NCBI GenBank assembly: GCA_038257035.1
Contig: JBBSJT010000042.1
Span: forward strand, 1-18,280
Source: Chlamydiia bacterium
Lineage (GTDB): Bacteria; Chlamydiota; Chlamydiia; Chlamydiales; Parachlamydiaceae
Length of the DNA stretch: 18,280 bases
Reading direction: 5' to 3'
How positions within the stretch are numbered: the first letter of the stretch is position 1; every line of letters begins with the position of its first letter. The notes beneath the pieces are model-generated. The model saw only the letters and a program-made list of their open reading frames with translations. It was not told where the DNA came from and did no database searches. This document shows, one piece after another, positions 1 through 15,803 of this stretch. Both the position numbers and the translations under genes were made by a program.

Positions 1-38
1 CGTGCATATCTTGTAAAAAAAATCTGAGATATTATATT
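1..38. repeat. Right-arm end of palindromic element family A, truncated by the window edge
   Basis: cgtgcatatcttgtaaaaaaaatctgagatattatatt closely matches 10997-11033 (cgtgcatatcctgtaaaaaaatcgaagatgttatatt) and the region from 15663. It lies 3' of the DUF151 gene. Confidence 0.85.
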
Positions 39-2096: not shown

Positions 2097-2273
2097 AAGG
2101 GATTTTAAAGGACAAAAAGGACATAAAGGACACAAGGGACTAAAAGGACATTTCCACCCTTTTGAACAGTATTTATGATAAGTTTATTAGCCTGGGAATT
2201 ACTTTCAAGACGGTGGGCATGTCCCTTTTGTCCTTTAAGTCCTTTTTGTCCTTTAAGTCCTTTAAAATCCCTT
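2097..2273. repeat. 177-bp palindromic element (family B) with five 9-nt AAAGGAC-NN units per arm
   Basis: GGAC at 2110/2119/2128/2137/2146 is mirrored by GTCC at 2221/2230/2239/2248/2257. Ends are aagggattttaaaggac ... gtcctttaaaatccctt. It sits between convergent genes. Confidence 0.95.
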
Positions 2274-2318
2274 AAAAACGTTCAATGACCCAATTTCACA
2301 ATTTTTAAAAGTCTACTT

Positions 2319-2645
2319 TTACAGTTTTTTGGCTTTGAACTTTCTAGGCGTTGGTTTTCTTACGCGGTCCTTTTTTAATTCGGATAATAAATGATTGATG
2401 AATTTACTTTTAGGGGCTGCGGGGTGGCGATTTTCATCGAAGAGTTCGATATCTTTGAGCTTTAAATCAATGCGTTCATCAGCATGTTTATCAATCCACT
2501 GATGGATGGAATCTTTCATTTTTTTAATGGCTTCAGGATTGATCAATTTTTTTTCTTCAAGAATGGACTCTTCCAATTTTTTTCGATATTTCTTAACTTG
2601 ATTGCTTTCCTTGGCCTTTACTTTTTCTTTTGAAGACATTAGCAT
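2319..2645 (-). CDS. Small Lys-rich hypothetical protein
   Basis: 108-aa ORF with a GGAGG RBS upstream (cctcc at 2649-2653). No family recognised. Confidence 0.7.
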   Translation of the reverse strand: MLMSSKEKVKAKESNQVKKYRKKLEESILEEKKLINPEAIKKMKDSIHQWIDKHADERIDLKLKDIELFDENRHPAAPKSKFINHLLSELKKDRVRKPTPRKFKAKKL

Positions 2646-2769
2646 GAACCTCCGGTATATTTTTTTTGATAACAGATCAAAAAGATAAAGTAAAGTATAA
2701 GAGAATTTTTACTTATATTGATCTAAAGAGGAGTGTACGATTTTTTTGATCTTGAAATGTTATAGACTG

Positions 2770-2798
2770 TTGACAGAAAATCACTTAAATCGGACAAT
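2770..2798 (+). promoter_or_regulatory. Putative sigma66/70-type promoter of tyrS
   Basis: TTGACA(2770)-17 bp-GACAAT(2793), upstream of an AAGGA RBS and the ATG at 2832. Confidence 0.55.
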
Positions 2799-2831
2799 AG
2801 CGGAACTTAAAAATCAAGGAATGAAAGATCT

Positions 2832-4106
2832 ATGCGCAATGTAATTGAAATTTTAAAAGAACGTGGCTTCATCGATGCGATGACAAATGATGACATGGCA
2901 ATGATTACAAATACTCCTGTTAAAGTTTATTGCGGTTTTGATCCAACAGCAGACAGCCTACATCTTGGCAATATGGTGGCCATTATGGGCCTTGCTTGGT
3001 TTCAAGCGTGCGGTCACATTCCGGTTGCCGTTGCAGGTGGCGCTACCGGAATGATTGGCGATCCTTCAGGAAAACTTGCTGAAAGACAATTGCTTAATGC
3101 TGAAACGATTGAAAATAATTTAGCAGGCATTAGAAAAAATTTAGAACAAATTTTAAATCAAGGTCAAGATAAAGCAAAGCCATTATTTTTAAACAATTAT
3201 GATTGGTTTAAAAATTTTTCTTTTCTTGATTTTTTGCGCGATGTTGGCAAAAATTTTAGAATCGGTCAAATGCTTGCAAAAGATAGCGTGAAATCAAGAT
3301 TAAATTCTGATGAAGGAATGAGTTTTACCGAATTCTCCTACCAGCTTTTACAAGGTTATGATTTTCTTTATTTATATGAAAACCATGGAGTCACAATCCA
3401 AATGGGTGGAAGTGATCAATGGGGAAACATTACGGCCGGAACAGACTTAATTCGTAAAGTGCATGGCAAATCAGTTTGCGGTATCACATTTCCTCTAATG
3501 ACCAGAAGTGATGGGCAAAAATTCGGTAAATCTGTAAAAGGAGCGATTTGGCTATCAGCTGATAAATTATCTCCTTATGAATTTTACCAATATTTGGTCA
3601 GGGTTTCTGATGATGATGTAATTAAACTGATGCGTTTTTTAACATTTATGGAAATGAGTGAAATTCAGGACATTGAAAAAAGCATGAAGTCATTGGATTA
3701 TGTTCCAAATACTGCTCAAAGGCGCCTTGCAGAAGAAGTTACAAGGATTGTCCATGGGGATGAAAAATTGCAGCTTGCCATCAAGGCAACAGTTGCAGCT
3801 GCACCAGGCTCTAAAACTGTTCTTGACGCGGATGTATTGGAAAATATTGCTAAAGATATACCTTCAGTTACTTACAGCCGAAGTGAAGTTGTCGGTTCAA
3901 AGCTTGTTGAACTTTTTGTAAAGACACAATTAGCGCCTAGCAAGAGTGAAGCTAAACGCCTCTTAAATAATGGTGGGGCCTATTTGAACAATGAAAAAAT
4001 AAATGATGAGAATTATTATATTTTAGAAAAAGATTTGATCGCAAATCATATGATTCTTTTGGGTGCCGGCAAAAAAAACAAACTCCTTATCCGAGTAGAA
4101 AATTAA
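2832..4106 (+). CDS. tyrS: Tyrosine--tRNA ligase
   Basis: YCGFDPTADSLHLGN (HIGH), GGSDQWGNI, KFGKS (KMSKS) and a C-terminal S4-like domain. Confidence 0.98.
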   Translation: MRNVIEILKERGFIDAMTNDDMAMITNTPVKVYCGFDPTADSLHLGNMVAIMGLAWFQACGHIPVAVAGGATGMIGDPSGKLAERQLLNAETIENNLAGIRKNLEQILNQGQDKAKPLFLNNYDWFKNFSFLDFLRDVGKNFRIGQMLAKDSVKSRLNSDEGMSFTEFSYQLLQGYDFLYLYENHGVTIQMGGSDQWGNITAGTDLIRKVHGKSVCGITFPLMTRSDGQKFGKSVKGAIWLSADKLSPYEFYQYLVRVSDDDVIKLMRFLTFMEMSEIQDIEKSMKSLDYVPNTAQRRLAEEVTRIVHGDEKLQLAIKATVAAAPGSKTVLDADVLENIAKDIPSVTYSRSEVVGSKLVELFVKTQLAPSKSEAKRLLNNGGAYLNNEKINDENYYILEKDLIANHMILLGAGKKNKLLIRVEN

Positions 4107-4215
4107 AAAATATTATATATATCAAGAAATTTCTTGAAACCAATTCTGGATTGCTTATGATAAGAAATTACGAAAAAAAGCAATCTATACAAAACTAACT
4201 AAGGGAGTTACCTAA

Positions 4216-4524
4216 ATGACAACTATGACAAAACCGAAAACCATGACTAAAAAAAAGCTGATCAATACGATCTCGCAGGAAAGAGGGATACATCCAAACG
4301 ATGTTCGTCATGTAATCCAAGCTTTTCTTGATAAAATGATCGATAGTTTATCGAGCGGCGATAGACTTGAATTTCGTGATTTTGGCGTTTTTGAAGTTGT
4401 ACAGCGCAAACAAAAAATTGGACGCAATCCTAAGAAGGCAGACCAACCCATTGTTATTCCGGCTCGTAGCGCAGTTAAATTTACACCGGGCAAAAAAATG
4501 AGAAAGCTTATTGAAGCTCCTTAA
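4216..4524 (+). CDS. ihfA: Integration host factor / HU family DNA-binding protein, chlamydial type
   Basis: MTKKKLI..IHPNDVR.., LEFRDFGVF, GRNPK and IPARSAVKFTPGK. AAGGGAG RBS at 4201. Confidence 0.93.
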   Translation: MTTMTKPKTMTKKKLINTISQERGIHPNDVRHVIQAFLDKMIDSLSSGDRLEFRDFGVFEVVQRKQKIGRNPKKADQPIVIPARSAVKFTPGKKMRKLIEAP

Positions 4525-4545
4525 AGCCTATCAAAAAATTAAGCT

Positions 4546-4596
4546 TTTTTTTACCAAAGGAGAAAATTAAAAACTCTCTCTCTATTGGTAAAAAAA
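4546..4596. terminator. Imperfect hairpin downstream of ihfA, terminator-like
   Basis: tttttttaccaa ... ttggtaaaaaaa is a perfect 12-bp outer stem with weaker inner pairing. Confidence 0.45.
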
Positions 4597-4977
4597 TGCA
4601 TAATTTTTTGAACTTATTTCTTAAGAACAAAAAGAATTGAAAGCGTCAAAATCAGTCTTTTTATGTTTGGTTATTTTTTTATCAATTTTTTTAAGAAAAT
4701 CATTCCTAAAATTTTCAAAAAAATCTATCATTAATGTTATAAACTCTCCTTACTAGAATAATGATCTATGTAAGTTAAGTTGCACTCTGCTCTAAGAATG
4801 TCTTTTTTGTCGGCCTTCTTAAGTAAACTAGAAGTCCATAGAAGACCACTTACGCTTCCATTATCAGGAAAGGGTTCGCTTAGGCTTTCATAAAATTATT
4901 TTTTTGCGTAAGATGAGTTTTTTATATCTCAAATGATATTTGTAATAAAGAGCTTTTTTTTAAATTGGGGTCATTAA

Positions 4978-6018
4978 ATGTCGTTTCCTAAATTATTGGT
5001 ATTGATTGGTTTAGTTTTATTTGGTACAATAGGCGTTGCTGCCATTTTTAAAACTAAAAAACCAAAGGAAGTTGTCCTTGAATCGGGATCTTTACCTTTG
5101 ATTGAAGTGGAACTTAAGGGCGAAGTAATAGTAGCAACGAGTAAAAATACGATAAAAAAAGATGATCTCAAAGAAAAAAACCAGGAAGTTGAAAAATCTC
5201 TTGATGTAGCGGAATTTGAGCTTAAGCCTAAAAATGACGAAGCCTTAAAACCTTTGCCGGAAGCTAATCGAATTGCTGAATTTTTTAATAGGCATGATCC
5301 TAAGTTCCCGATCGTTGAAACGGTGACTTATAAGCCAAGAGTAGCTTGGCAAAAAGGTCGACCTGCATGGCTGTCAGATTATGCTAGTCACTATGCAACT
5401 TCAAGACATTTTATTGCTCGCAGCTTAAATCAGAAACCTGACTATTTTAAGCAGGATATTACGGAAGGCGATCAATTTAATGTTTTAAAGCCGGATGTTA
5501 ATTTAAACTTTTATTTGCTGATTGATATTTCAAGAAGTAGAATGTGGTTTTATTACCATGATTTGGATAAAAATGAACGCACTTTGGTAAAGACTTATAA
5601 AGTTGGCCTAGGACGTCCAGATCCGTTAAAGATATCGGGGCTTTTAACGCCGATTGGAAAATATTCGCTTGGAAACAAAATCGCGATTTATAAACCAAAA
5701 GCGATGGGATTTCATGGCGGTGAGCAAATTGAAATGATCAGGGTGTTTGGTTCAAGATGGATACCATTTGAAAAAGAATTATCCACCTGTAGTGCACCTG
5801 CCAAAGGATTTGGAATCCATGGGGTACCTTGGGTTATCGATAAAAAAGGAAATTTTGTCGAAGATATTATGAGTTTAGGAAAATATGAGAGCGATGGGTG
5901 CATCAGACTTGCAACATCAGATATTGAAGAGTTATTTGCGATCATCATTACAAAGCCTACGTACGTTGAGCTTGTAAAAGATTTTTACGATGCCAAGCTA
6001 CCTGGCATAGAAAAATAA
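4978..6018 (+). CDS. Membrane-anchored L,D-transpeptidase (YkuD) family protein with a LysM-like domain
   Basis: N-terminal hydrophobic anchor, YKVGLG, TPIGKY, FGSRWI and GIHG...SDGCIRL (catalytic His/Cys). Residues ~116-170 are LysM-like. Confidence 0.85.
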   Translation: MSFPKLLVLIGLVLFGTIGVAAIFKTKKPKEVVLESGSLPLIEVELKGEVIVATSKNTIKKDDLKEKNQEVEKSLDVAEFELKPKNDEALKPLPEANRIAEFFNRHDPKFPIVETVTYKPRVAWQKGRPAWLSDYASHYATSRHFIARSLNQKPDYFKQDITEGDQFNVLKPDVNLNFYLLIDISRSRMWFYYHDLDKNERTLVKTYKVGLGRPDPLKISGLLTPIGKYSLGNKIAIYKPKAMGFHGGEQIEMIRVFGSRWIPFEKELSTCSAPAKGFGIHGVPWVIDKKGNFVEDIMSLGKYESDGCIRLATSDIEELFAIIITKPTYVELVKDFYDAKLPGIEK

Positions 6019-6037
6019 GCCACCCTTTAGGGGGGAT

Positions 6038-6190
6038 TTTTTTTACCGCGAAGAGCGCGAAGAAAGACGCGAAGAGACGCGAAGAAGCGCGCTAATAGCG
6101 CGATAAGAGGAAAGAGCCTCATTATTCGCGCTTTAGCGCGCTTCTTCGCGCCTCTTCGCGCCTCTCTTCGCGTTCTTCGCGGTAAAAAAA
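6038..6190. repeat. 153-bp GC-rich palindromic element (family C) with four CGCGAAG units per arm
   Basis: CGCGAAG at 6047/6056/6068/6078 is mirrored by CTTCGCG at 6144/6154/6166/6175. Ends are tttttttaccgcg ... cgcggtaaaaaaa. Confidence 0.95.
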
Positions 6191-6252
6191 GGAAAAAATA
6201 CTGGTATATAAGCTAAGCTTTTTTAAGACGAATATAATATAGAGGTTTTATT

Positions 6253-7209
6253 TTGAAGGACATGTTACCACACGAAAAGCAAATTTACGAATATTTAAAG
6301 GCTATCGAACATTTGAAAAAGCAAAATCAGGACAACCCCTTATTTAATAATGAAATTAAAAAATTGGAAATGAAACTTGAAGAGTTAAAGAAAAAAACTT
6401 ACTCAGAGCTTACTCCCTGGCAGCGCGTGCAGATTTGCCGTCACCCTTCAAGACCTCACACTATTGATTACATTAAAAATATTTGCCAAAATTTTCATGA
6501 ATTGGCAGGAGATCGCACTTTTTCAGATGATCAGGCAATTGTTGGTGGTCTTGCAAAAATTGGCGACATGAATTGTGTTGTGATCGGACAAGAAAAAGGA
6601 AACGATACGGAAAGCAGAGTTCATCGCAATTTTGGAATGTTAAACCCTGAAGGGTTTAGAAAGGCTTTAAGGCTGATGCGCCTTGCCGAAAAATTTAATT
6701 TACCCGTGGTTTCATTTTTAGATACTCCAGGTGCTTATCCTGGCCTTGGAGCTGAAGAGCGCGGTCAGGGCTTTGTGATTGCTAACAATTTGCGCGAAAT
6801 GTCCCGCATCAAAACACCGATTATTGTTTTAGTCATCGGAGAGGGCTGCTCAGGCGGCGCGCTTGGAATGGGCGTTGGTGATGTTGTTGGAATGTTAGAG
6901 CATGCTTATTACTCTGTTATATCGCCTGAGGGTTGCGCTTCCATTCTTTGGAAAGATGCCTCCAAAAGTGCACTTGCAGCTGATAGCTTAAAGCTTAATT
7001 CAGAAGATTTGTTAAAGCTTGAAATTATTGACTCGATTGTGCCTGAGCCTCTTGGAGGGGCCCATCACGATCCTGAAAAAACTTACGCTAACGTGAAAAA
7101 ATTTATTTTAGAACAATGGCAGACTCTAAAAAATATCCAACCGGACATTTTAATTGAGCAACGCTATTTAAAATTTAGAAAAATCGGCAAGTTTACAGAA
7201 ACTGTTTAA
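6253..7209 (+). CDS. accA: Acetyl-CoA carboxylase carboxyltransferase subunit alpha
   Basis: [35 protein letters not shown] and [13 protein letters not shown] start with an AGAGGT RBS; ATG at 6262 is an alternative. Confidence 0.97.
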
Positions 7210-7227
7210 ACTAACTTTCAGGGACGA

Positions 7228-9162
7228 ATGAAAAAATTATTTAAAATTGCGTTTGAAAATCGCAAAAATCGCAAGATGCTATTTTTGACGGTAGTTGCCA
7301 TGTGTTTATTTACGGTAGCCTCCCAGCTAGAAATATTAGCTATCGGCATGATCACTCAAAAAGGGCCTGAATTGTTCAATGTCTTTTCAGAACCATCTGT
7401 TATGCAGGATGAAATTTTTGAAACTCAAATCATGGAGCGCATTCATGAAATTGATAGTGATCATAAAGGTTTTATCACAAAAACAGACGTTAATAACTAT
7501 TTAGCAACAAGAAATAGCGGTGGAACGATTGAAAAGTTCATTTTGCGCATCAATCAAACTTTTCCTATTTCCGGTAATGTTGTGGGTTTGGCCTTTATGT
7601 TGGTTTTTGTAGCTTTTTTTAAGTCATTGACGCTATTTGCCCACCGCTTTACAACACGGGTTGTTTCGATCTCTGTTAGTCAGGACTTAAGACAAAAATA
7701 TTTTGAGCATATTCAATCACTTCCCATGACATTTTTTCAAAAGTATAATATTGGTTCATTATCATCAAGGGCAGTTGGCGATGCCTCGCAAATAGCAGAG
7801 TCGATCAATGCCTGTCTTGTTAATTACTTGCAAACACCATTTACAGTGCTTACAACCCTTGTTCTCTGTTTTTTGACATCATGGAAACTTTCTCTGATTA
7901 TTTTCTTAGGCTTTCCATTGATTGTTTTTCCCATTGTGTTTTTGACAAAACGTGTAAAGAAGGTGTCCAAACAATTGCAGCAAAATCAGGAAAAATTCGC
8001 CTCTGTGCTTATTGATTTTTTAGCCGGCGTTCAAACGGTTAAAGTTTTTGCAATGGAAGACTTTTCTTTAAAAAAATACCGCGAACAAAACGAACATATG
8101 GCCAAATTAGAGAAAAAAAGTGCACGCTATGACTTGTCGACAAGCCCTGTAGTTCATATGATCGGCATGTGCTTTTTGGCAACAGCACTTTTGTATGGTC
8201 TTTATATTTTGAATATGACCATCACTGAAGTCTTCTTTTATTGTGGGATGCTTTATTTCTTTTATATGCCGATCAAGAAGTTTGCTGAAGAAAATGCACA
8301 TATTCAACGCGGGATCGCAGCAGCAGAACGCATGTTTGAAGTATTGGATTTAAAACCGCAGATTCAAGACAATGAAGATGCATTTAACATGACCGAATTT
8401 AAAGATTGTATTGAATTTGATGATGTTTGGTTTCGCTATGAAGATAAATGGGTGTTAAAAGGGTTAAATTTCACCATCAAAAAGGGTGAAACTGTTGCCA
8501 TTGTAGGACCTACCGGAGCCGGAAAATCGACCATTGTTCAGCTTCTTCCAAGACTTTATGATCTTGAAAAAGGAAATATTAAAATCGATGGAAAAAACAT
8601 CACGTCTTTAACTCAAAAATCTCTTAGAGACAATATTGCTTTTATCCCACAAAAACCTTTTCTTTTCTTAGATACTGTTGCGGCTAATATTTCTTATGGA
8701 AAAATGTATTCAGAAGAAGAAATCAGACAGGCGGCAGTTAAGGCACATGCAGAAGACTTTATTTTAGAGTTGCCGGATGGGTATCAGACAGAGTTATCAG
8801 AAACAGGGAAAAACCTTTCAGGTGGCCAACAGCAACGTTTGGCAATTGCTCGTGCGCTCGTTAAAAATGCACCGATTTTAATTATGGACGAGGCAACCTC
8901 ATCACTTGATAATGTAAGTGAAAACCATATCAAGACAGCAATTAAAGAGCTTCGCGGACAAGTGACGCAAGTGATCATTGCCCACCGTTTATCAACTATT
9001 GAAGATGCAGATAAAATTATATATCTTGATAAAGGTGAGAAAATTGCAGAAGGCACCAAGGAAGAGCTTTTACGAACATGTGATGGCTTTAGAAACATGT
9101 GGGAAATGATGCATATCCAAAAAACAGACCTTCCCAATATCAACTTGATTCACACACCATGA
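7228..9162 (+). CDS. msbA: ABC exporter, TMD + NBD fused (lipid A flippase MsbA-like)
   Basis: Hydrophobic TM segments, Walker A GPTGAGKST, LSGGQ signature, ILIMDEATS and IAHRLST. Follows accA as in chlamydiae. Confidence 0.85.
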   Translation: MKKLFKIAFENRKNRKMLFLTVVAMCLFTVASQLEILAIGMITQKGPELFNVFSEPSVMQDEIFETQIMERIHEIDSDHKGFITKTDVNNYLATRNSGGTIEKFILRINQTFPISGNVVGLAFMLVFVAFFKSLTLFAHRFTTRVVSISVSQDLRQKYFEHIQSLPMTFFQKYNIGSLSSRAVGDASQIAESINACLVNYLQTPFTVLTTLVLCFLTSWKLSLIIFLGFPLIVFPIVFLTKRVKKVSKQLQQNQEKFASVLIDFLAGVQTVKVFAMEDFSLKKYREQNEHMAKLEKKSARYDLSTSPVVHMIGMCFLATALLYGLYILNMTITEVFFYCGMLYFFYMPIKKFAEENAHIQRGIAAAERMFEVLDLKPQIQDNEDAFNMTEFKDCIEFDDVWFRYEDKWVLKGLNFTIKKGETVAIVGPTGAGKSTIVQLLPRLYDLEKGNIKIDGKNITSLTQKSLRDNIAFIPQKPFLFLDTVAANISYGKMYSEEEIRQAAVKAHAEDFILELPDGYQTELSETGKNLSGGQQQRLAIARALVKNAPILIMDEATSSLDNVSENHIKTAIKELRGQVTQVIIAHRLSTIEDADKIIYLDKGEKIAEGTKEELLRTCDGFRNMWEMMHIQKTDLPNINLIHTP

Positions 9163-9821
9163 AAAAAAAAGCAATCGTAGTCCATTCCGGTGGAATGGAC
9201 TCCTCCATTTGTTTAAAACTTGCAATTAACGAGTTTGGTGCAGAAAATGTTTTAAGCTTGTCTTTTCAATACAATCAGCGACACATTGGAGAATTAAAAC
9301 AAGCAGCTATTATTGCGGCGCATTTTGGAGTGGACAATTTGGTGTTGCCAATTGATTGCCTGCAAAAAATTACAACAAATGCCCTTACAAATAAAGAAAT
9401 GATGATTGTCAAAGAAGGGCAACTACCTCCAAATACGCTTGTTGTTGGAAGGAACGGTCTTATGGCACGAATTGCTGCCATTCATGCGGAAGAATTAGGG
9501 GCAAGCTGCATCTACATGGGAATTATTGAGGTTGAGGCTTGTAATTCCGGTTATCGTGATTGTACAAGACATTATATGAATCTTATGGAAAACATTTTAC
9601 GAATCGATCTGAATGATCCACAATTTGAAATCCGCACGCCTCTTGTTTTTATGACAAAAAAAGAAACAATGGAATTGTCGGAAAAACTTGGGATTTTAGA
9701 TTATCTTTTGGAAATGACCATCACTTGTTATGAAGGGATTCGAGGGGAGGGTTGCAAGGTCTGCCCAGCTTGTAAACTTCGTAATGAGGGCTTGGAGCTC
9801 TATTACGCGTCGTTAGTTTAG
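9159..9821 (+). CDS. queC: 7-cyano-7-deazaguanine (preQ0) synthase
   Basis: HSGGMDS PP-loop, YNQRH, VVGRNG, GYRDC and the TITCYEG..GCKVCPACKLR zinc site. Likely start is ATG 9159, overlapping the msbA stop (ATGA). Confidence 0.93.
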   Translation: MKKKAIVVHSGGMDSSICLKLAINEFGAENVLSLSFQYNQRHIGELKQAAIIAAHFGVDNLVLPIDCLQKITTNALTNKEMMIVKEGQLPPNTLVVGRNGLMARIAAIHAEELGASCIYMGIIEVEACNSGYRDCTRHYMNLMENILRIDLNDPQFEIRTPLVFMTKKETMELSEKLGILDYLLEMTITCYEGIRGEGCKVCPACKLRNEGLELYYASLV

Positions 9822-9908
9822 AAGACTATTTGTTTTCATTTGGTAAAATAAATCTTTGACTTAAATTAAAAGTTTGAATTAGACGTTTAAAAAAAAGGAG
9901 TCTTTTTT

Positions 9909-10340
9909 ATGAATTCAGTTTCCTACCTTCCGGCAACCTTATATAAAGTAAAAATTAGTTACAAAATAAATGATTGCATCTATGAATTAAATAAGAAAAT
10001 CAAGCTTATTACTATTCAAACTGAAGCCAATTCAAACGTTTCTGCAGCCACTTCTCAAATGTTCAAAGATTTGTTTTCTGAAAGTGACTTTATTGGAATG
10101 GATTCTGATTTAAACTTTTTGTCAAAACGTGAATTTGTAATCCTTCAAGAAAACTCTTTTGCAATCCATCTTAAAAGTATTCTAATACCAGAAGATTTAG
10201 TTGAAAAAATTGGGCTTTTGGAGGATTTTAGTATAAGGAATGGTAATAAATCAGAAACCATAGAGATGTTTAAGGAAGAACTAGACCCTGTAAAAGAAGA
10301 AATCCGAATTGGAATGGAAGAATTTTTTAAAGTTGATTGA
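9909..10340 (+). CDS. Hypothetical protein, paralog 1 of a local three-member family
   Basis: AAGGAG RBS. Shares MDSxxNF, EF, HLKxxxxPExLxEKI and LDPVxEE motifs with the genes at 10400 and 12626. Confidence 0.85.
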   Translation: MNSVSYLPATLYKVKISYKINDCIYELNKKIKLITIQTEANSNVSAATSQMFKDLFSESDFIGMDSDLNFLSKREFVILQENSFAIHLKSILIPEDLVEKIGLLEDFSIRNGNKSETIEMFKEELDPVKEEIRIGMEEFFKVD

Positions 10341-10399
10341 CAATATTTAAATGGTTATGTTAGAAAGTACTCTCAAACACTGTTAGGAGTACAAAATTT

Positions 10400-10816
10400 G
10401 TGAATCCAACTTCTGATTATCAAGCTGCTTTATATGAAATTCAAGTCGGCAAGAAGCTTTCTAAGATCATTAGTGTATTGATTCCTGAAGGGATTGAATA
10501 TGCTGAATACAATATTTTTAAATTCTTAAATACACCGATATTTAAAGAAGTCTTTTCAAAGCCTGTTTGCCTCATTATGGACTCTAATTGGAATTTTCTT
10601 TGCCACTGTGAATTTGAATCAATTAGAAAAAATTCATCTACAAATCATTTGAAAAATATTTTTTTATCCAAAGAATTAGTCAGGAAAATTTTTTTAGTTT
10701 CCCAAGTAAGTTTTAAAAATGATGATAATAAGACTAAAATCTACCCGATTTATAGCCAAGAGCTTAATCCTATTCAAGATGAAATCAAAGCAGAAATGGC
10801 TCACTTCTGGCAATAA
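10400..10816 (+). CDS. Hypothetical protein, paralog 2
   Basis: GTG start with AGGAG RBS. Motifs MDSNWNFL, HLKNIFLSKELVRKI and ELNPIQDEIKAEMAHFW. Confidence 0.85.
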   Translation: MNPTSDYQAALYEIQVGKKLSKIISVLIPEGIEYAEYNIFKFLNTPIFKEVFSKPVCLIMDSNWNFLCHCEFESIRKNSSTNHLKNIFLSKELVRKIFLVSQVSFKNDDNKTKIYPIYSQELNPIQDEIKAEMAHFWQ

Positions 10817-10848
10817 CCCTCCCCCCTTTCATAAGACGTTCTCAAGCA

Positions 10849-11031
10849 GAAAAAATTTAGACCCCTACAAGTTATAACATTTTCGACTTTTTTACAGGAT
10901 AAGCACGATCGCTTCGCGGCACTAAAGCCAAGATAATATCAACCTTCAGTAATTCAGGAGGTTGATAGTATCCTGCTTATCGTGCCGCGAAGCGATCGTG
11001 CATATCCTGTAAAAAAATCGAAGATGTTATA
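10849..11031. repeat. Palindromic element family A, copy 2
   Basis: Inverted arms 10873-10944 / 10960-11031 around a 15-nt loop. 10849-10870 also matches the outer arm of the 15491-15745 copy. Confidence 0.95.
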
Positions 11032-11164
11032 TTAAGTAGCTTTATTAACATTGAAGGTTTTATTTTGTATAGCACAGTATATGTAGAGGGGTTGATAAAA
11101 TAATCTTGCGATCTAAATCTTAAATCAGCTATCCCTGTTTTTTTTAAAGTTGGCAGGAGATGCT

Positions 11165-12556
11165 ATGTTTGTCGGAAGTACACCGTTTCAAGGGATTTAC
11201 AATTACTTTTACGGAATCAATCCTGTTAGTAATATTGCGGAATGTAAATTAACAACTGATGATGATATTAAATTTTTCAGCATAAAAGCCTTCTTCCGAT
11301 ATGCAGACGTTTGTGATTTTAAAGATTTTTGGAAAAGGGCTAACACTTGTGATGCTTGTCTTGTACTCTTAGAGCCTTTTTTGGAACAAAAATTTTGTGA
11401 CAAGGAAGTTGAAGGGATGTTTGTAACCATCCAAAAAATTCTTGAAAAGAATCTTTTTTTTTATAATGAGAGCGATCTTAAAAAGATGTGGATTGATGAT
11501 TTTGGCTGGTGGGGATTAATGGGGCTTAATGCTTTTAAGCTTATGGAAAAAATTGGAAATTATGAACTTTCTCAAAAATATTTAAATCTTTCCAAGGATT
11601 GTTTTAAAAGGATGATTGATTTTGGTGTGGATATCAATAAGAACGATAAGCCTGTACCTTTCGGATGCCGCAATACCACCCAAATTGAGCCCAATTGCGG
11701 AGTAAAAAATACAGTTGTCAACGCTTTATTGATGCTACTTTCAACAAAATTGTACCGGCTTCATGTTGAGAGGGATTTTAATGGTTCAGATGATTATCTT
11801 AAAATGGCCTATGAGCAATGGATCTTTTTTTCAAAGTGGTTTGAGCATAAAGATGATAAATATATGTATTTCAAGTCTTTTATAGGGGATGATAGCGCAG
11901 CACTTGTAGGAGAGCGGCCTCTGGATTTTTCTGATGGTTCTAGTTACAGAGAAACAGGGCATCCTGATTGGTCTCCAGGTTGGGTTTGGTCGGGCGATAA
12001 TGGGCTTCTCATTGGAGCATTTGGCGATCTAATATCTTATAAAGATAATCTTGCAAAGTATGCCTTTCAATATCAGCCGAAGTGGAGATTTAATGCACGT
12101 GACTTTGAAGCAAAAATCACAAATTTCACAAAAAAATTGATCCAGGGAGTTCATAAGGGAATGATTGGAAATGATGGGATTTTTCATGAACTTGCCTGCG
12201 TAGCAAGTTATAATTTGAATGGAAATGATTATTTAGCTGGACGGGGTATATTGCTGCGTTACATGGATCTTGAAGTCGTAAAAAAATTAACAGGGATTGA
12301 TTTTAAAGATAATATTTTAAAAACGGTTTTTGCCCTTTGGTCCACAAGAGATGAAAGCAATAACCAATTTAGAGAAGATTTTACACCAACACAAGCTAAT
12401 TTAGATTTTGCCAATCAATGCGGCGCTCTTTTGGGAATTTCCGATAGAGCCACATGCTGGATCTTAAGTCATGAAAAGCAAAATGAAGTAGAAGCCATTA
12501 CACAGGCTCTAGGAATAGATTTTTTGGCCGCTGCAGCTAAATTTAAGTCATGTTAA
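11165..12556 (+). CDS. Glycoside hydrolase family 76 (alpha-1,6-mannanase/Dfg5-like) protein
   Basis: WIDDFGWWGL (adjacent catalytic Asp-Asp), KNTVVNALLMLLSTKLYR, WSGDNGLLIGA (cf. WTYNQG) and RGILLRYM (cf. KGIxxRYL). AGGAG RBS favours ATG 11165. Confidence 0.8.
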   Translation: MFVGSTPFQGIYNYFYGINPVSNIAECKLTTDDDIKFFSIKAFFRYADVCDFKDFWKRANTCDACLVLLEPFLEQKFCDKEVEGMFVTIQKILEKNLFFYNESDLKKMWIDDFGWWGLMGLNAFKLMEKIGNYELSQKYLNLSKDCFKRMIDFGVDINKNDKPVPFGCRNTTQIEPNCGVKNTVVNALLMLLSTKLYRLHVERDFNGSDDYLKMAYEQWIFFSKWFEHKDDKYMYFKSFIGDDSAALVGERPLDFSDGSSYRETGHPDWSPGWVWSGDNGLLIGAFGDLISYKDNLAKYAFQYQPKWRFNARDFEAKITNFTKKLIQGVHKGMIGNDGIFHELACVASYNLNGNDYLAGRGILLRYMDLEVVKKLTGIDFKDNILKTVFALWSTRDESNNQFREDFTPTQANLDFANQCGALLGISDRATCWILSHEKQNEVEAITQALGIDFLAAAAKFKSC

Positions 12557-12562
12557 TTTACT

Positions 12563-12591
12563 TGGACAAATTCTACTTTGAAGGTTATAAT
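12563..12591 (+). promoter_or_regulatory. Putative sigma66/70-type promoter of paralog 3
   Basis: TGGACA(12563)-17 bp-TATAAT(12586). Confidence 0.55.
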
Positions 12592-12625
12592 TGTTTATTA
12601 TAAACTAAAAAAAGGAGATTTGTTT

Positions 12626-13018
12626 ATGAATCCTAATCCATCTGTTAAAAAATCTTTATATGATCCGACTGTTTCTTTTGAATTTAATTATAAGAAAAAT
12701 GTAGACAATGGAATTTATGAAAATAAAAGATTTAAAATACTAAGAATTGAATTTAAAGTTCCAGGTAGTTTTTCAAGTTCAGCGCTTTATATAGATTCTA
12801 ATTTAAATTTTTTTCCTGACACTGAATTTGATAAATTTAAACGAACTTCTATCCGTACCCCAATGAAGCATGTTTCAGTGCCTGAGGAATTGTTAGAAAA
12901 AATTTCCAAATTTACCAATTTATTAAATTTAAAAGCGATACTTAAACCTGAACTTAAAAGTGTCCTTGACCCTGTTCAGGAAGAGCTTAAACTAGAGCTT
13001 GCTAAATTCTGGCATTAA
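12626..13018 (+). CDS. Hypothetical protein, paralog 3
   Basis: AAGGAG RBS before ATG 12626. Motifs IDSNLNFF, MKHVSVPEELLEKI and LDPVQEELKLELAKFW. Confidence 0.85.
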   Translation: MNPNPSVKKSLYDPTVSFEFNYKKNVDNGIYENKRFKILRIEFKVPGSFSSSALYIDSNLNFFPDTEFDKFKRTSIRTPMKHVSVPEELLEKISKFTNLLNLKAILKPELKSVLDPVQEELKLELAKFWH

Positions 13019-13035
13019 TATCTAGTTTCTGTTCT

Positions 13036-13080
13036 AAAACAATTATAAAGCAGGCTGTAGGCCTGCTTTATAATTGTTTT
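13036..13080. terminator. Perfect 20-bp inverted repeat, probable bidirectional terminator
   Basis: aaaacaattataaagcaggc-tgtag-gcctgctttataattgtttt, starting 17 bp after the paralog 3 stop. Confidence 0.75.
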
Positions 13081-13236
13081 CTAGCTTAATGCCTATGCAG
13101 AAAAGCGTCAGTTAGTCCAATACCTCATCCACCTTAATGCCGCACAGGTAAAAAAAAAGCATCTGAGGCCCCCTGCATTTTTTTGGCTTGTGAAAAAAAG
13201 TGTTTAGGATTACAACTTTAAGTAATTCAACAAAGG

Positions 13237-14187
13237 ATGTTTCCTATGATGTCATTAAAGAGTATGATTCCGCCAAATTGCTATTCAAGAATAGCGCTAC
13301 ACCCATTCAAAAGAGCACATTCAACATCGGGTGATTTATTCAAAAATATTGAATGCATTCAAAATGCACTCATAACTATTGCAAAGCCCGATCCCTTTAA
13401 TGGCTGCATGTTTGATTTTACTGCACTAAAAGAAAATGGTATATTTGAAGAAACTGAGGTTTTCAAAAATATTTTTCGAATCCAAATTGAAATAGCAAGG
13501 GAAAATGGAACTCATGTTCTTGGATTAAAGGTCCCTGCAGCATGGGGCACTGTGATGAAGACTGCAATAGATTTGGGCTTCAGACATCATCATGCAAATG
13601 GCGAATATTCCTTGTTAAATTTATGTTTAAGTGGACATGGGCCTAAGGAATGCAGTTTTCCTGCCTTTAGAACTATTTCTGCAGGTGTTACGGCTGTTGT
13701 TTTTGATCCTACTTTAGAAAAAGTGCTTGTCGTCACAGAAAAAACAGGTATTAAAAAACCAAAACCTGTTACCGGTGGTATTGAATATGGTGAAAAGGGA
13801 GATACTCCTCTTAAAACTGTGATCAGAGAATTAGAAGAAGAAGTTCAAATTCATTTAAAACCAGAAGACATGGTGCTTGTGGGTACAGGTTGGGTAAATG
13901 AATACCGTCAAAAAAATCCTGATACCCAATATATTTTTGCCACTCGTTTAAAGAAAATGCAAGAACCTGTCATTCAACAAAGCGAAATTGCAAAAGCTGA
14001 ATGGGTATCAATAGAGGAGTTTATAAAAACAGCTGATGATGAAAAAGAAAAACCTTGGCTTTTAAGGCAGGTGGTTGAGGTTGCCTATAATACGCTCAAA
14101 AACCAAAAAGGGGAGTGGGGTCAAAAAACCTTATTTTTAACCAACGGTAAGCCTGTAGAATTTTATAGCTCGAGGAATAGGGAATAA
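13237..14187 (+). CDS. Nudix hydrolase, NUDT6/plant NUDX7-8-like with a pre-Nudix domain
   Basis: LKVP...AIDLGFRHHHA..YSLL (pre-Nudix), GVTAVVF..KVLVVTEK and a variant Nudix box GGIEYGEKGDTPLKTVIRELEEEVQI. Confidence 0.85.
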   Translation: MFPMMSLKSMIPPNCYSRIALHPFKRAHSTSGDLFKNIECIQNALITIAKPDPFNGCMFDFTALKENGIFEETEVFKNIFRIQIEIARENGTHVLGLKVPAAWGTVMKTAIDLGFRHHHANGEYSLLNLCLSGHGPKECSFPAFRTISAGVTAVVFDPTLEKVLVVTEKTGIKKPKPVTGGIEYGEKGDTPLKTVIRELEEEVQIHLKPEDMVLVGTGWVNEYRQKNPDTQYIFATRLKKMQEPVIQQSEIAKAEWVSIEEFIKTADDEKEKPWLLRQVVEVAYNTLKNQKGEWGQKTLFLTNGKPVEFYSSRNRE

Positions 14188-14190
14188 TCC

Positions 14191-15426
14191 ATGATTGATT
14201 TTGATCATAAAAATAAGATGAATGAGGAATTTATCAGTTGTATGATCGAATTGGATATGTTCTCAAGGCTTGGAAGCAATACTTATATTCGGTATAATCG
14301 AATAACCGGTTTTGCGCCAACAGGGGGTGTTTATAGCTCAATGCCCCTTGTTCAAACATCTGTAACAATTTGGCATGGACACTCTTTTTCTTATATTATC
14401 ACTCAATTTGAAAATTTTTGTGAGAAAATAAAAAAGTGTGCTGAAAACATCCTGCAAGAAGGGCTATATACTCCTGATGACAATCTAAAAAGAAGAAAAT
14501 TCAATGAGGTTCATTTGTTGCATGGTGCAGTTGAATCGGCACTTGGCGGAGCAGAAGAAAATGGCGGAATGTATGGATTGCTTCTTACCTACTCCCAAGA
14601 AACGATTGCTAAACAGTTAATCAATGCCATTTCACACATGAAACATGCGGTGGTTAATGTCAAGCGCCAAGCTGACTCTTGGTATCCGGAAACTCTTTCA
14701 CAATTTGGATTTTTGTTAGAAGAACCATTACCCTATTGTCCTGAAAAATATTTTAGTGAGATCGAATGGGACCAAGCCTTGAGAATCAGTAGAGGTTTAA
14801 AAATCGAGTCTCCAAGCTTATACAGTTATTATGGAAATTTTTGTACTGCTATAAATTTTAATCTTGGAAAGAATCTTTTAGGCAATTGGAACATTTGGGA
14901 TGAAATTATTGAGGTAAACGGGGCAAAAGGTACAGCTTCGCTTGTTCTTGGCTCTTTGCCATTGAAAATAGAATCTCTTAACCGAAATGATGCAATTGAT
15001 TTGGAGGCCATCGGTATTCAAGCAGTCTTAAGTGTTGTTGAAGTGTATGAAAATCATTCGCCTGGAAATGTTATTTCACCGATTAATTCGGATGATTGGG
15101 AAAACTTAAAAATTAAGCAATTACAGCTTCCATCTGCTGATTTAAAAACATTATCATTTGAAAGGATCCAAAAGGGAGTTGAATTTATTCGTTGGAATTT
15201 AGAAAATGGACGACCTGTATACGTGCATAGCAGAACAGGGAGGGGCTTAAGTGCTTTGATTATTATGTGCTATCTTATTCAATATCAAGAATTTACAGCA
15301 GAACAAGCTTTGGCCTATGTAGCTTTAAAGCGCATCCAGGTAAGTTTTTTAAGTGAATCTGCCAAATACAATACTTTAATGAGCTTTGAAAAAAAACTTA
15401 AAGCTCAAGACAAAACCCTTCTATAG
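14191..15426 (+). CDS. Unknown N-terminal domain plus PTPMT1-like dual-specificity phosphatase domain, predicted inactive
   Basis: LVLGSLP, IQAVLSVVE, LPSAD and VYVHSRTGRGLSALIIMCYLI, where VYVHCxxGxxRS is expected. Confidence 0.85.
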   Translation: MIDFDHKNKMNEEFISCMIELDMFSRLGSNTYIRYNRITGFAPTGGVYSSMPLVQTSVTIWHGHSFSYIITQFENFCEKIKKCAENILQEGLYTPDDNLKRRKFNEVHLLHGAVESALGGAEENGGMYGLLLTYSQETIAKQLINAISHMKHAVVNVKRQADSWYPETLSQFGFLLEEPLPYCPEKYFSEIEWDQALRISRGLKIESPSLYSYYGNFCTAINFNLGKNLLGNWNIWDEIIEVNGAKGTASLVLGSLPLKIESLNRNDAIDLEAIGIQAVLSVVEVYENHSPGNVISPINSDDWENLKIKQLQLPSADLKTLSFERIQKGVEFIRWNLENGRPVYVHSRTGRGLSALIIMCYLIQYQEFTAEQALAYVALKRIQVSFLSESAKYNTLMSFEKKLKAQDKTLL

Positions 15427-15490
15427 TGTTTGCGACAATTTGGGTGAGGTTGATGCATAACCGTCCCAATCAAGATCGTTATTGCCCCAA

Positions 15491-15745
15491 AATATATACT
15501 AGCTCTACTTCAATCTGAAAATTATAGACCCCTACAATTTATCACGTCTTCAATTTTTTACAGGATATGCACGATCGCTGCGTGGCACGATAAGCAGGAT
15601 AATATCAACCACATGTATTACTGAGGGTTAATATTATCCTGCTTATCGTGCCGCGCAGCGATCGTGCATATCCTGTAAAAAATCGAATATGTTATGCATT
15701 GTAGGGGTCTAAATTTTTCAGATTAAAGTAGCACCAGTATATATT
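15491..15745. repeat. Palindromic element family A, copy 3 (255 bp, most complete), MITE/REPIN-like
   Basis: 120-bp arms at 15491-15610 / 15626-15745. The inner 58 bp have only 2 mismatches. 15-nt loop; located between convergent genes. Confidence 0.95.
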
Positions 15746-15803
15746 GGTTCTACTTGAAGCGGTAAACAGATCCCTCGTATTGATTCAGTGGTTGAAGTAG
15801 CGG

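Follow-up and report, generated by a model that had tools for sequence, protein, structure and literature searches.

A repetitive extragenic palindromic (REP) unit is a single imperfect hairpin of 20-40 nt whose head is a conserved tetranucleotide (GTAG/CGTC), and the REP-associated tyrosine transposase (RAYT), a Y1 HUH transposase, is thought to serve paired units (REPINs) in trans; Rickettsia palindromic elements, for their part, are inserted in-frame in open reading frames (ORFs). Another kind of small element, the 23S rRNA intervening sequence of Coxiella, Leptospira and Salmonella, is bounded by a stem and in some cases carries an S23p four-helix-bundle ORF; according to the parts of PMC4990558 drawn on here, it is cut from the RNA by RNase III, and its origin and mover are unexplained. 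Here we describe five palindromes in an 18,280-nt stretch of DNA (the window), which is the whole of contig C42 (JBBSJT010000042.1) of a Chlamydiia bacterium of the Parachlamydiaceae. The assembly of this source genome (G000) comprises 2,366,241 bases in 210 contigs, with a GC content of 36%, a completeness of 95.8% and a contamination of 0.7%. The palindromes form three families (A, B and C), which are probably gene-less, non-autonomous copies of what we term word-array palindrome cassettes. A full cassette, as far as can be read from sequence, would consist of a small gene framed by two arrays of a 6-7-nt word in inverted orientation (three to five words at a period of 8-10 nt), and each array is entered from outside through a T-run. 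The predicted gene is a ~125-aa PD-(D/E)XK nuclease of the GxxExxY family for CRCRRAG-type and (A/C)A(C/G)GAT-type words, and a ~185-aa four-helix-bundle-like protein for (A/T)GGAC-type words; many genomes show this grammar around genes of both protein families. Over evolutionary time the elements are mobile; they are non-coding and share their arms with gene-bearing copies.

As far as the rRNA intervening sequences are described in those parts of PMC4990558, the present elements are like them in being small and selfish-looking, with terminal inverted repeats that form a long stem, in the optional PF05635 four-helix-bundle ORF at the centre, and in a patchy distribution that suggests horizontal transfer. 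They differ from the rRNA intervening sequences in several respects. The latter are described there only from 23S rRNA helices, where they occur once or a few times, and excision by RNase III defines them. The present elements occupy intergenic spacers in hundreds of copies and have arms composed of tandem words; the majority lack a gene, and where a full copy has one, it mostly encodes a PD-(D/E)XK nuclease. Assignment of the window copies to the intervening sequences was rejected, as all five lie in intergenic spacers between protein genes. With REP/REPIN-RAYT the elements share the many gene-less inverted doublets in intergenic spacers, the one or few copies that flank a small gene, and the family-specific pairing of repeat and protein. 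Yet the protein is a PD-(D/E)XK nuclease or a four-helix-bundle protein instead of a Y1 HUH transposase, and the arms are 58-120 nt long with three to five tandem 6-7-nt words behind a T-run lead-in, rather than single short hairpins.

Inverted-repeat and word searches confirmed the five palindromes at the positions and word spacings given by the first-pass annotation of the window (Table 1). The T-run ahead of the arrays reads TTTTTTAC in families A and C and GGGATTTT in family B. Folded as a single DNA strand, the family C element reaches -78.2 kcal/mol (z -14.4) and the family B element -46.6 kcal/mol (z -9.7), and in neither case did any of 200 shuffles fold as well. The three families had been taken as unrelated in sequence. 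They are not wholly so: the T-run/AC lead-in is common to all, and the outer modules of family A are shared with three further word families of the genome: TATATACTGGTGCTACTT...GTTTCTGA and TAGACCyCTACAAT...TTCGA stand ahead of the T-run in family A, CGCAGAG, CAGTGAG and CGCAAAG copies alike. Likewise, the outer inverted repeat of A3 is also present on other word families. The common grammar of the word arrays is GATTTTTT(C)A(A)C, followed by three to five words at a period of 8-10.

Table 1. Word-array palindromes of the window, with arm positions and word starts
Element	Position	Arms (length, complementarity, distance between arms)	Word starts	Description
Family A, right-arm end of a palindrome, cut by the contig end	1..38			Matches the right arms of A2 and A3 (below)
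Family B, gene-less palindrome	2097..2273	2097-2166/2204-2273 (70 nt, 83%, 37 nt)	2107, 2116, 2125, 2134, 2143	Five AA[AG]GGAC words per arm, period 9; 37-nt centre; terminal inverted repeat AGGGATTTTAAAGGAC
Family C, gene-less palindrome	6038..6190	6038-6095/6133-6190 (58 nt, 93%, 37 nt)	6047, 6056, 6068, 6078	Four CGCGAAG words (spacing 9/12/10) and an inner GCGCGCTAATAGCGCG hairpin per arm; weakly conserved outer modules extend to about 6019 and 6215
Family A, gene-less palindrome A2	10849..11031	10873-10945/10959-11031 (73 nt, 88%, 13 nt)		CAGGAT/CACGAT words, just two still intact in the left arm; outer module TAGACCCCTACAAGTTATAACATTTTCGA on the left side only
Family A, gene-less palindrome A3	15491..15745	15491-15610/15626-15745 (120 nt, 88%, 15 nt)	15561, 15570, 15586, 15595	CA[GC]GAT x4 (spacing 9/16/9) inside the outer inverted repeat TATATACT(A/G)G..CTACTT

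All three families are repeated throughout the genome. A BLAST search with the elements, along the lines that had been proposed, gave 43 loci for family B, 178 for C and 121 for A, on 29, 73 and 78 contigs, respectively. A de novo scan found 320 long palindromes that make up 2.76% of the genome; 201 of them are of the word-array type (so that the genome holds at least 201) and belong to six word families, namely CGCGAAG (79 by dominant word), CAGGAT/CACGAT (43), CAGTGAG (36), CGCAAAG (19), CGCAGAG (16) and AAAGGAC (8), while the other 119 are other hairpin families. Palindrome families that lack word arrays include TGGGGTCAGGCTTTACA...CAATCCAGACCCCA (five copies) and GGGGACRGTTC...TTAATCGA (four copies); C1:53149-53379, C45:17702-17918, C51:2151-2373 and C196:1074-1291 are among their sites. 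Facing pairs of the family C terminus number 88; they span 86-657 bp, with nearly all between 145 and 315 bp. For family B, 21 facing AAAGGAC array pairs were found by a looser, three-word array search.

The arms of family C contain small GC hairpins and are of two types: of 63 classifiable elements, 34 are type 2/2, 13 type 1/1 and 16 mixed. Arms of the same element are more alike than random pairs (0.78 versus 0.71; the observed value was reached in 0 of 2000 permutations). Moreover, the number of units may differ between the two arms, for example four versus two in C24:17874, which, together with the mixed types, fits arrays that act as sites on each arm and not merely as a stem. Family A copies were also noted at many contig ends, window positions 1-38 included, and CGCGAAG elements yield spurious frames of 90-140 aa that cluster as a 'protein family' (C104:4134-4568, C19:20617-20952 and C71:7065-7370). 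Thus these repeats break the assembly and carry a risk of false gene calls; many short 'ORFs' that overlap the elements are artefacts of the repeats.

Three palindromes of the genome enclose ORFs of ~150 aa. One of them, at C7:925-1589, was identified by the profile search for gene-enclosing copies that the first-pass annotation had recommended: arms of family C (CGCGAAG) stand around a GxxExxY gene (TIGR04256 'GxxExxY protein', E 1.3e-40; also PF13366 PDDEXK_3). Gene-less family C copies share with this filled copy only about 100 nt on the left and about 85 nt on the right. The second and last GxxExxY gene of the genome, at C17:14838-15215, is preceded directly by a decayed CGCAAAG-like array and followed directly by a complete CGCAAAG palindrome; families C and CGCAAAG each have a candidate helper gene in this genome. 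Among the long facing pairs, C4:32345-33819 was rejected as a filled copy, being an IS3-family insertion sequence (IS) with orfA and a DDE orfB inserted in the loop of a family B palindrome, and C37:14411-14850 and C100 hold no convincing gene.

The enclosed protein is predicted to be a nuclease. In 25 aligned GxxExxY proteins, G32, G34, E37, Y40, D76, E86 and K88 are invariant, which makes the PD-(D/E)XK site complete. A structural model (predicted local distance difference test score, 92.7) has the PD-(D/E)XK fold, with VIA Z of 7.9 to the BpuSI N-terminal domain, 7.5 to a Cas4, 7.1 to BglII and 6.5 to Hjc. A Foldseek search with the model returned nothing at E <= 0.001, and a sequence search of solved structures nothing at E <= 0.01. 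Judged from the model, the nuclease appears to resemble only generic PD-(D/E)XK members, with no specific subfamily nameable. In the portion of a 2012 survey of the PD-(D/E)XK superfamily drawn on here, the function of PF13366 is listed as 'Unknown'.

The association of this gene with word arrays extends well beyond the source genome. Matches to TIGR04256 were found in 26 of 41 related genomes (0-67 per genome, many of them fragments). When 25 GxxExxY loci in these relatives were read by eye, arrays stood on both sides in 18, and seven were one-sided or decayed; the words were CACAGAG, CGCAGAG, CGCAAAG, CACAAAG, AACGAT and CAGGAT. Locus L039 has TTACAGGATATGCAGGATCGCAAGCGGCAGGATATG, which is near the family A sequence of the window, and CAGGAT arrays bracket GxxExxY genes in genomes G005 and G257 (L039 and L164), as the first-pass annotation had suggested. 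A scan of one genome per species gave at least 602 stretches, and at least 588 of these were confirmed as GxxExxY relatives; the relatives listed span many bacterial phyla and one archaeal metagenome-assembled genome. For 76 of the relatives listed, the best inverted match between upstream and downstream flank had a median of 19.5, against 9.75 in mismatched pairs, and 31 of the 76 exceeded the control maximum; the matched segments are mostly (T)TCACC plus CRCRRAG words at a period of 8-9. Furthermore, at least two class words occur in both flanks in inverted orientation at 70 of 105 distinct GxxExxY genes, compared with none of 112 controls in which the flanks were shuffled. Between the end of the left array and the start codon there are usually 0-35 nt.

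The word also follows the protein. On a quick maximum-likelihood tree, in which many forks are unresolved, 23 changes of the exact word are counted, whereas 300 label shuffles required 33.7 on average and never fewer than 29, and the AACGAT/CAGGAT genes form one long-branched clade (SH-aLRT 99). The idea that each repeat word has its own cognate protein is therefore borne out to the extent that the word tracks the protein clade, that is, as co-inheritance at least. In another genome (G035, L050-L062), a GxxExxY cassette with CACAGAG arrays was observed within an IS5-like element, in the segment from the transposase stop to the IS end; about 30 further copies there retain only the two arrays and, of the gene, its last third, and no cassette-free copy of the IS5-like element was found in that genome.

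For family B, the evidence points to a different protein. Of 401 genomes sampled from the phylum, 18 contain AAAGGAC arrays, with a patchy spread over five families; the congener G002 is not among them, and in the array-rich genomes the GxxExxY genes carry other words. What adjoins GGAC-type arrays is a ~185-aa protein with a weak match to PF05635 (four-helix-bundle, S23p/Avd family). A four-helix-bundle-like query matched 30 of 400 genomes, among them 9 of the 10 with at least ten AAAGGAC-array hits versus 21 of the 389 others, related genomes not being independent, and at least three GGAC-type words lie within 300 nt at 19 of 27 such loci. AAAGGAC arrays bracket a gene of this kind at L174 and L180 (G019 and G098), as the first-pass annotation had likewise suggested; in a clade that is ~47-50% identical (L193, L195 and L199), the word is ATGGAC. 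The only clear PF05635 gene of G000 (C166:500-850, minus strand; locus L001, C166:470-890) was observed on a 2.3-kb contig between rimM and a methyltransferase gene, with facing ATTCCAA-type words around it.

Comparison of orthologous spacers, also advised at the outset, uncovered empty sites. The pattern of the family C terminus was matched 164 times in G000 but nowhere in 40 relatives, two congeners included. These congeners (G001 and G002) are without families B and C at the orthologous sites of the window: the spacer between the L,D-transpeptidase gene and accA is 234 bp long in G000, whereas G002 has about 28 bp there and G001 about 0 bp, and no AAAGGAC element follows nif3 in G002. Syntenic contigs from metagenome runs X3, X4 and X5 (three other studies) are about 91-92% identical to the window (one syntenic piece, for example, differs at 166 of 1935 letters). 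They skip 2084-2313 (family B), where 23 other letters stand, and 6021-6229 (family C), where there are 62 other letters; contigs of X2-X5 skip 15321-15802 (A3), with 130 other letters. Families B and C are thus neither single-copy nor fixed, but multi-copy and absent in relatives, and family C has a filled copy; the elements, A3 included, were inserted recently, after the split from the ~91-92% identical relative. Read depth in X4 and X5 peaks over the bins of families B and C, which suggests that these two families sit elsewhere in the organisms of those runs.

Around A2, the X3-X5 contigs skip 10810-12356, that is, A2 and the next gene, and window bins 11591-12200 are nearly without read cover in four runs; the loss may be a gene-sized indel beside A2. 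The segment missing in X3-X5 takes in most of the GH76-like gene (11150-12556) that follows A2. The one site that could be read for target structure tentatively suggests that family B inserted between CTAAAGA and TAAAG; its ends would be AGGGATTTTAAAGGAC...GTCCTTTAAAATCCCT, and no duplication is evident there, or one of 1-2 nt at most, the flanks having diverged. A search for empty sites within G000 returned internal-deletion copies (C78 and C8) and no empty site. Taken together, the filled copies, the copy number and the presence/absence pattern support the original proposal that the palindromes are empty, non-autonomous forms of a poorly described mobile system.

The word-array elements are found mainly in spacers at gene 3' ends. 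The 201 copies comprise 62 in convergent, 88 in tandem and 23 in divergent spacers, 25 at contig edges and three in ORFs of at least 150 aa; with 257 convergent, 1211 tandem and 294 divergent spacers in a rough gene set of G000, convergent spacers carry an about threefold excess of copies per spacer. Copies of the six word families lie at a median of 24-77 nt from the nearest gene 3' end. In the window, where the elements had been described as lying just 3' of a gene, they start 10-65 nt past a stop codon (10 nt past that of nif3 for family B and 20 nt past that of the L,D-transpeptidase gene for family C), and A3 sits between two convergent genes. Such positions would be expected of domesticated structural elements under selection at gene 3' ends (transcript stabilizers, RNase III sites, barriers between convergent genes or nucleoid-protein arrays) whose mobility is past only. 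This explanation also gains from the 3' site of the HU gene, which has a palindrome in three congeners and in the ~92% relative, and from the similar build of the 23S rRNA intervening sequences, which are excised by RNase III (PMC4990558, the same parts). However, all four readable window copies are absent from the ~91-92% identical relative, so they are not conserved parts of these operons; 23 copies are in divergent spacers, and word families turn over between congeners. In addition, the T-run stands ahead of the hairpin and the A-run behind it on both strands, the reverse of an intrinsic (rho-independent) terminator, an assignment that was rejected here and that the first-pass annotation had held insufficient. 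Because of the absence from the relative and the reversed run orientation, a purely structural role is improbable.

At the HU gene itself, a small T-run palindrome (TTTTTTTTACCAAAGGAGA...TCTCTATTGGTAAAAAAA) was observed directly 3' of the coding region at 4531-4611 of the window. The ~92% relatives keep it with a 4-nt deletion, G001 has a palindrome of ATGGAC words at this site, and in G002 the palindrome is another one (TTTTTTTTTAACGCAAAGGAAGACAG...), the centre of which coincides with a contig break.

The other two palindrome-enclosed ORFs, at C29:8925-9566 and C105:2162-2811, are IS200/RAYT-like Y1 transposases (NF033573, E 9e-25 and 4e-17). They are flanked by short GC hairpins, not by word arrays; the hairpins also form separate multi-copy palindrome families, and genes and hairpins constitute a separate REP/RAYT-like system beside the word-array one. 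The earlier statement that there is no transposase is accordingly valid for the window, where a Pfam scan of 17 ORFs found none, but not for the genome, which has the IS3-family element and the two IS200/RAYT-like genes. In principle, the palindromes could be REPIN-like or MITE-like derivatives (MITE, miniature inverted-repeat transposable element) served by one of these conventional transposases, either an IS200/RAYT-like Y1 enzyme or a DDE IS. The hairpins alongside each Y1 gene, the small GC hairpins in family C arms, and the outer inverted repeat TATATACTGG..CTACTT, with TA-rich bounds, that encloses some copies all speak for this origin. The elements are indeed like bacterial MITEs and Rickettsia palindromic elements in being palindromic, non-coding, multi-copy insertions of 100-300 bp that vary between close relatives and are abundant in a host-associated bacterium with a small genome. 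Unlike IS-derived MITEs, they have no parent DDE IS with matching ends that could be found in G000, and no target duplication was seen at the one readable site, where the flanks have diverged; unlike the in-frame Rickettsia elements, they rarely lie within long ORFs (3 of 201 copies). An IS-derived MITE was rejected, as no IS with such shared ends was found in G000 and the IS3-family copy is an insertion into a family B element; a RAYT mover or REPIN-RAYT membership was likewise rejected, the Y1 genes having other hairpins at their flanks. Moreover, in dozens of genomes it is GxxExxY or four-helix-bundle genes that the word arrays enclose. Since the flanks of the RAYT and DDE enzymes differ from the word arrays, these enzymes are unlikely movers, and an origin from conventional transposases is very improbable indeed.

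How a cassette would move can be outlined only conditionally. The encoded protein would bind the tandem words of its own arms as an oligomer, and because the left array abuts the start codon, this binding may also regulate the protein's own gene. The A/T-rich base would aid extrusion of the palindrome as a hairpin or cruciform, the GxxExxY nuclease might then cut at this base, upon which the element would be copied or moved, and gene-less copies would be served in trans. Membership of the palindromes in the cassette class, and their mobility, are likely, whereas the role of the GxxExxY nuclease as mobilizer is put forward more tentatively, as a plausible suggestion.

Several observations weigh against the interpretation as cassettes moved by their own proteins. 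Two unrelated proteins, one of them without a known catalytic fold, occupy the same slot, so that the mover could be something else. A cognate gene is present in the assembly for just two of at least six word families (C and CGCAAAG); at 95.8% completeness, none was found for A (no cognate gene between its arrays), B (no four-helix-bundle-like partner), CAGTGAG or CGCAGAG, and another genome, G257, has 211 AAAGGAC-array hits and no four-helix-bundle-like gene. Word and tree would agree through co-inheritance alone, given that each gene is physically linked to its arrays. Finally, the gene copies in G035 spread by hitch-hiking in the IS5-like element and not on their own.

The main rival draws on some of the same observations. 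It holds that the palindromes are primary and were spread by another enzyme or by host recombination or replication, that the genes are secondary invaders of their centres (homing-type or cargo), and that gene-less copies are empty targets. The shared slot of two unrelated gene families would follow from it, as would the richness of G257 and G000 in AAAGGAC arrays without a partner gene. The loops do accept insertions, as the IS3-family element in the family B loop illustrates; family C copies without a gene contain no gene remnants, and some genes stand beside, not inside, a complete palindrome (C17, L032, L035, L170 and L172). On the other hand, a homing gene should fill most sites, but in family C one filled copy is present per about 88 gene-less ones. 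No other candidate mover was found among the 17 largest repeated ORF families inspected in G000, which included no transposase, and the two RAYT-like genes carry different hairpins. Truncated cassette copies do exist in G035, which bears on a deletion series from full to gene-less copies. We therefore consider invasion of pre-existing palindromes to be unlikely and retain the reading of the window palindromes as gene-less cassettes. Among the repeated ORFs of G000, Sel1, F-box-like and GroEL-like families were also noted.

No publication was found that links GxxExxY (TIGR04256/PF13366) to flanking repeats, or that describes such palindromic repeats of Chlamydiae or these array strings, in a search with subscription journals and database family descriptions outside its scope. 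Word-array palindrome cassettes are a widespread and seemingly undescribed kind of small selfish DNA. A broader proposal, which we rate as rather doubtful, is that they represent a class of transposase-free mobile DNA in which a minimal nuclease, or a four-helix-bundle protein together with host enzymes, would read a tandem word on both hairpin arms and move the hairpin by a cut at its extruded base; word and protein would co-evolve as a simple re-targetable recognition code, and the 23S rRNA intervening sequences would be one special case. The link to a repeat grammar gives a testable role to GxxExxY, a large orphan family, and likewise to the four-helix-bundle family related to S23p/Avd, and through it an origin can be proposed for the 23S rRNA intervening sequences, which have long been unexplained. 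It also accounts for a set of intergenic palindromes by which assemblies are broken and false ORFs arise. This chlamydial genome stands out by the size of the expansion, by the clear-cut absence of the insertions from close relatives, and by having helper-bearing and orphan families side by side. As it combines six word families and about 200 copies with two candidate helper genes, and as close relatives lack the insertions, it provides a good test bed for the system.

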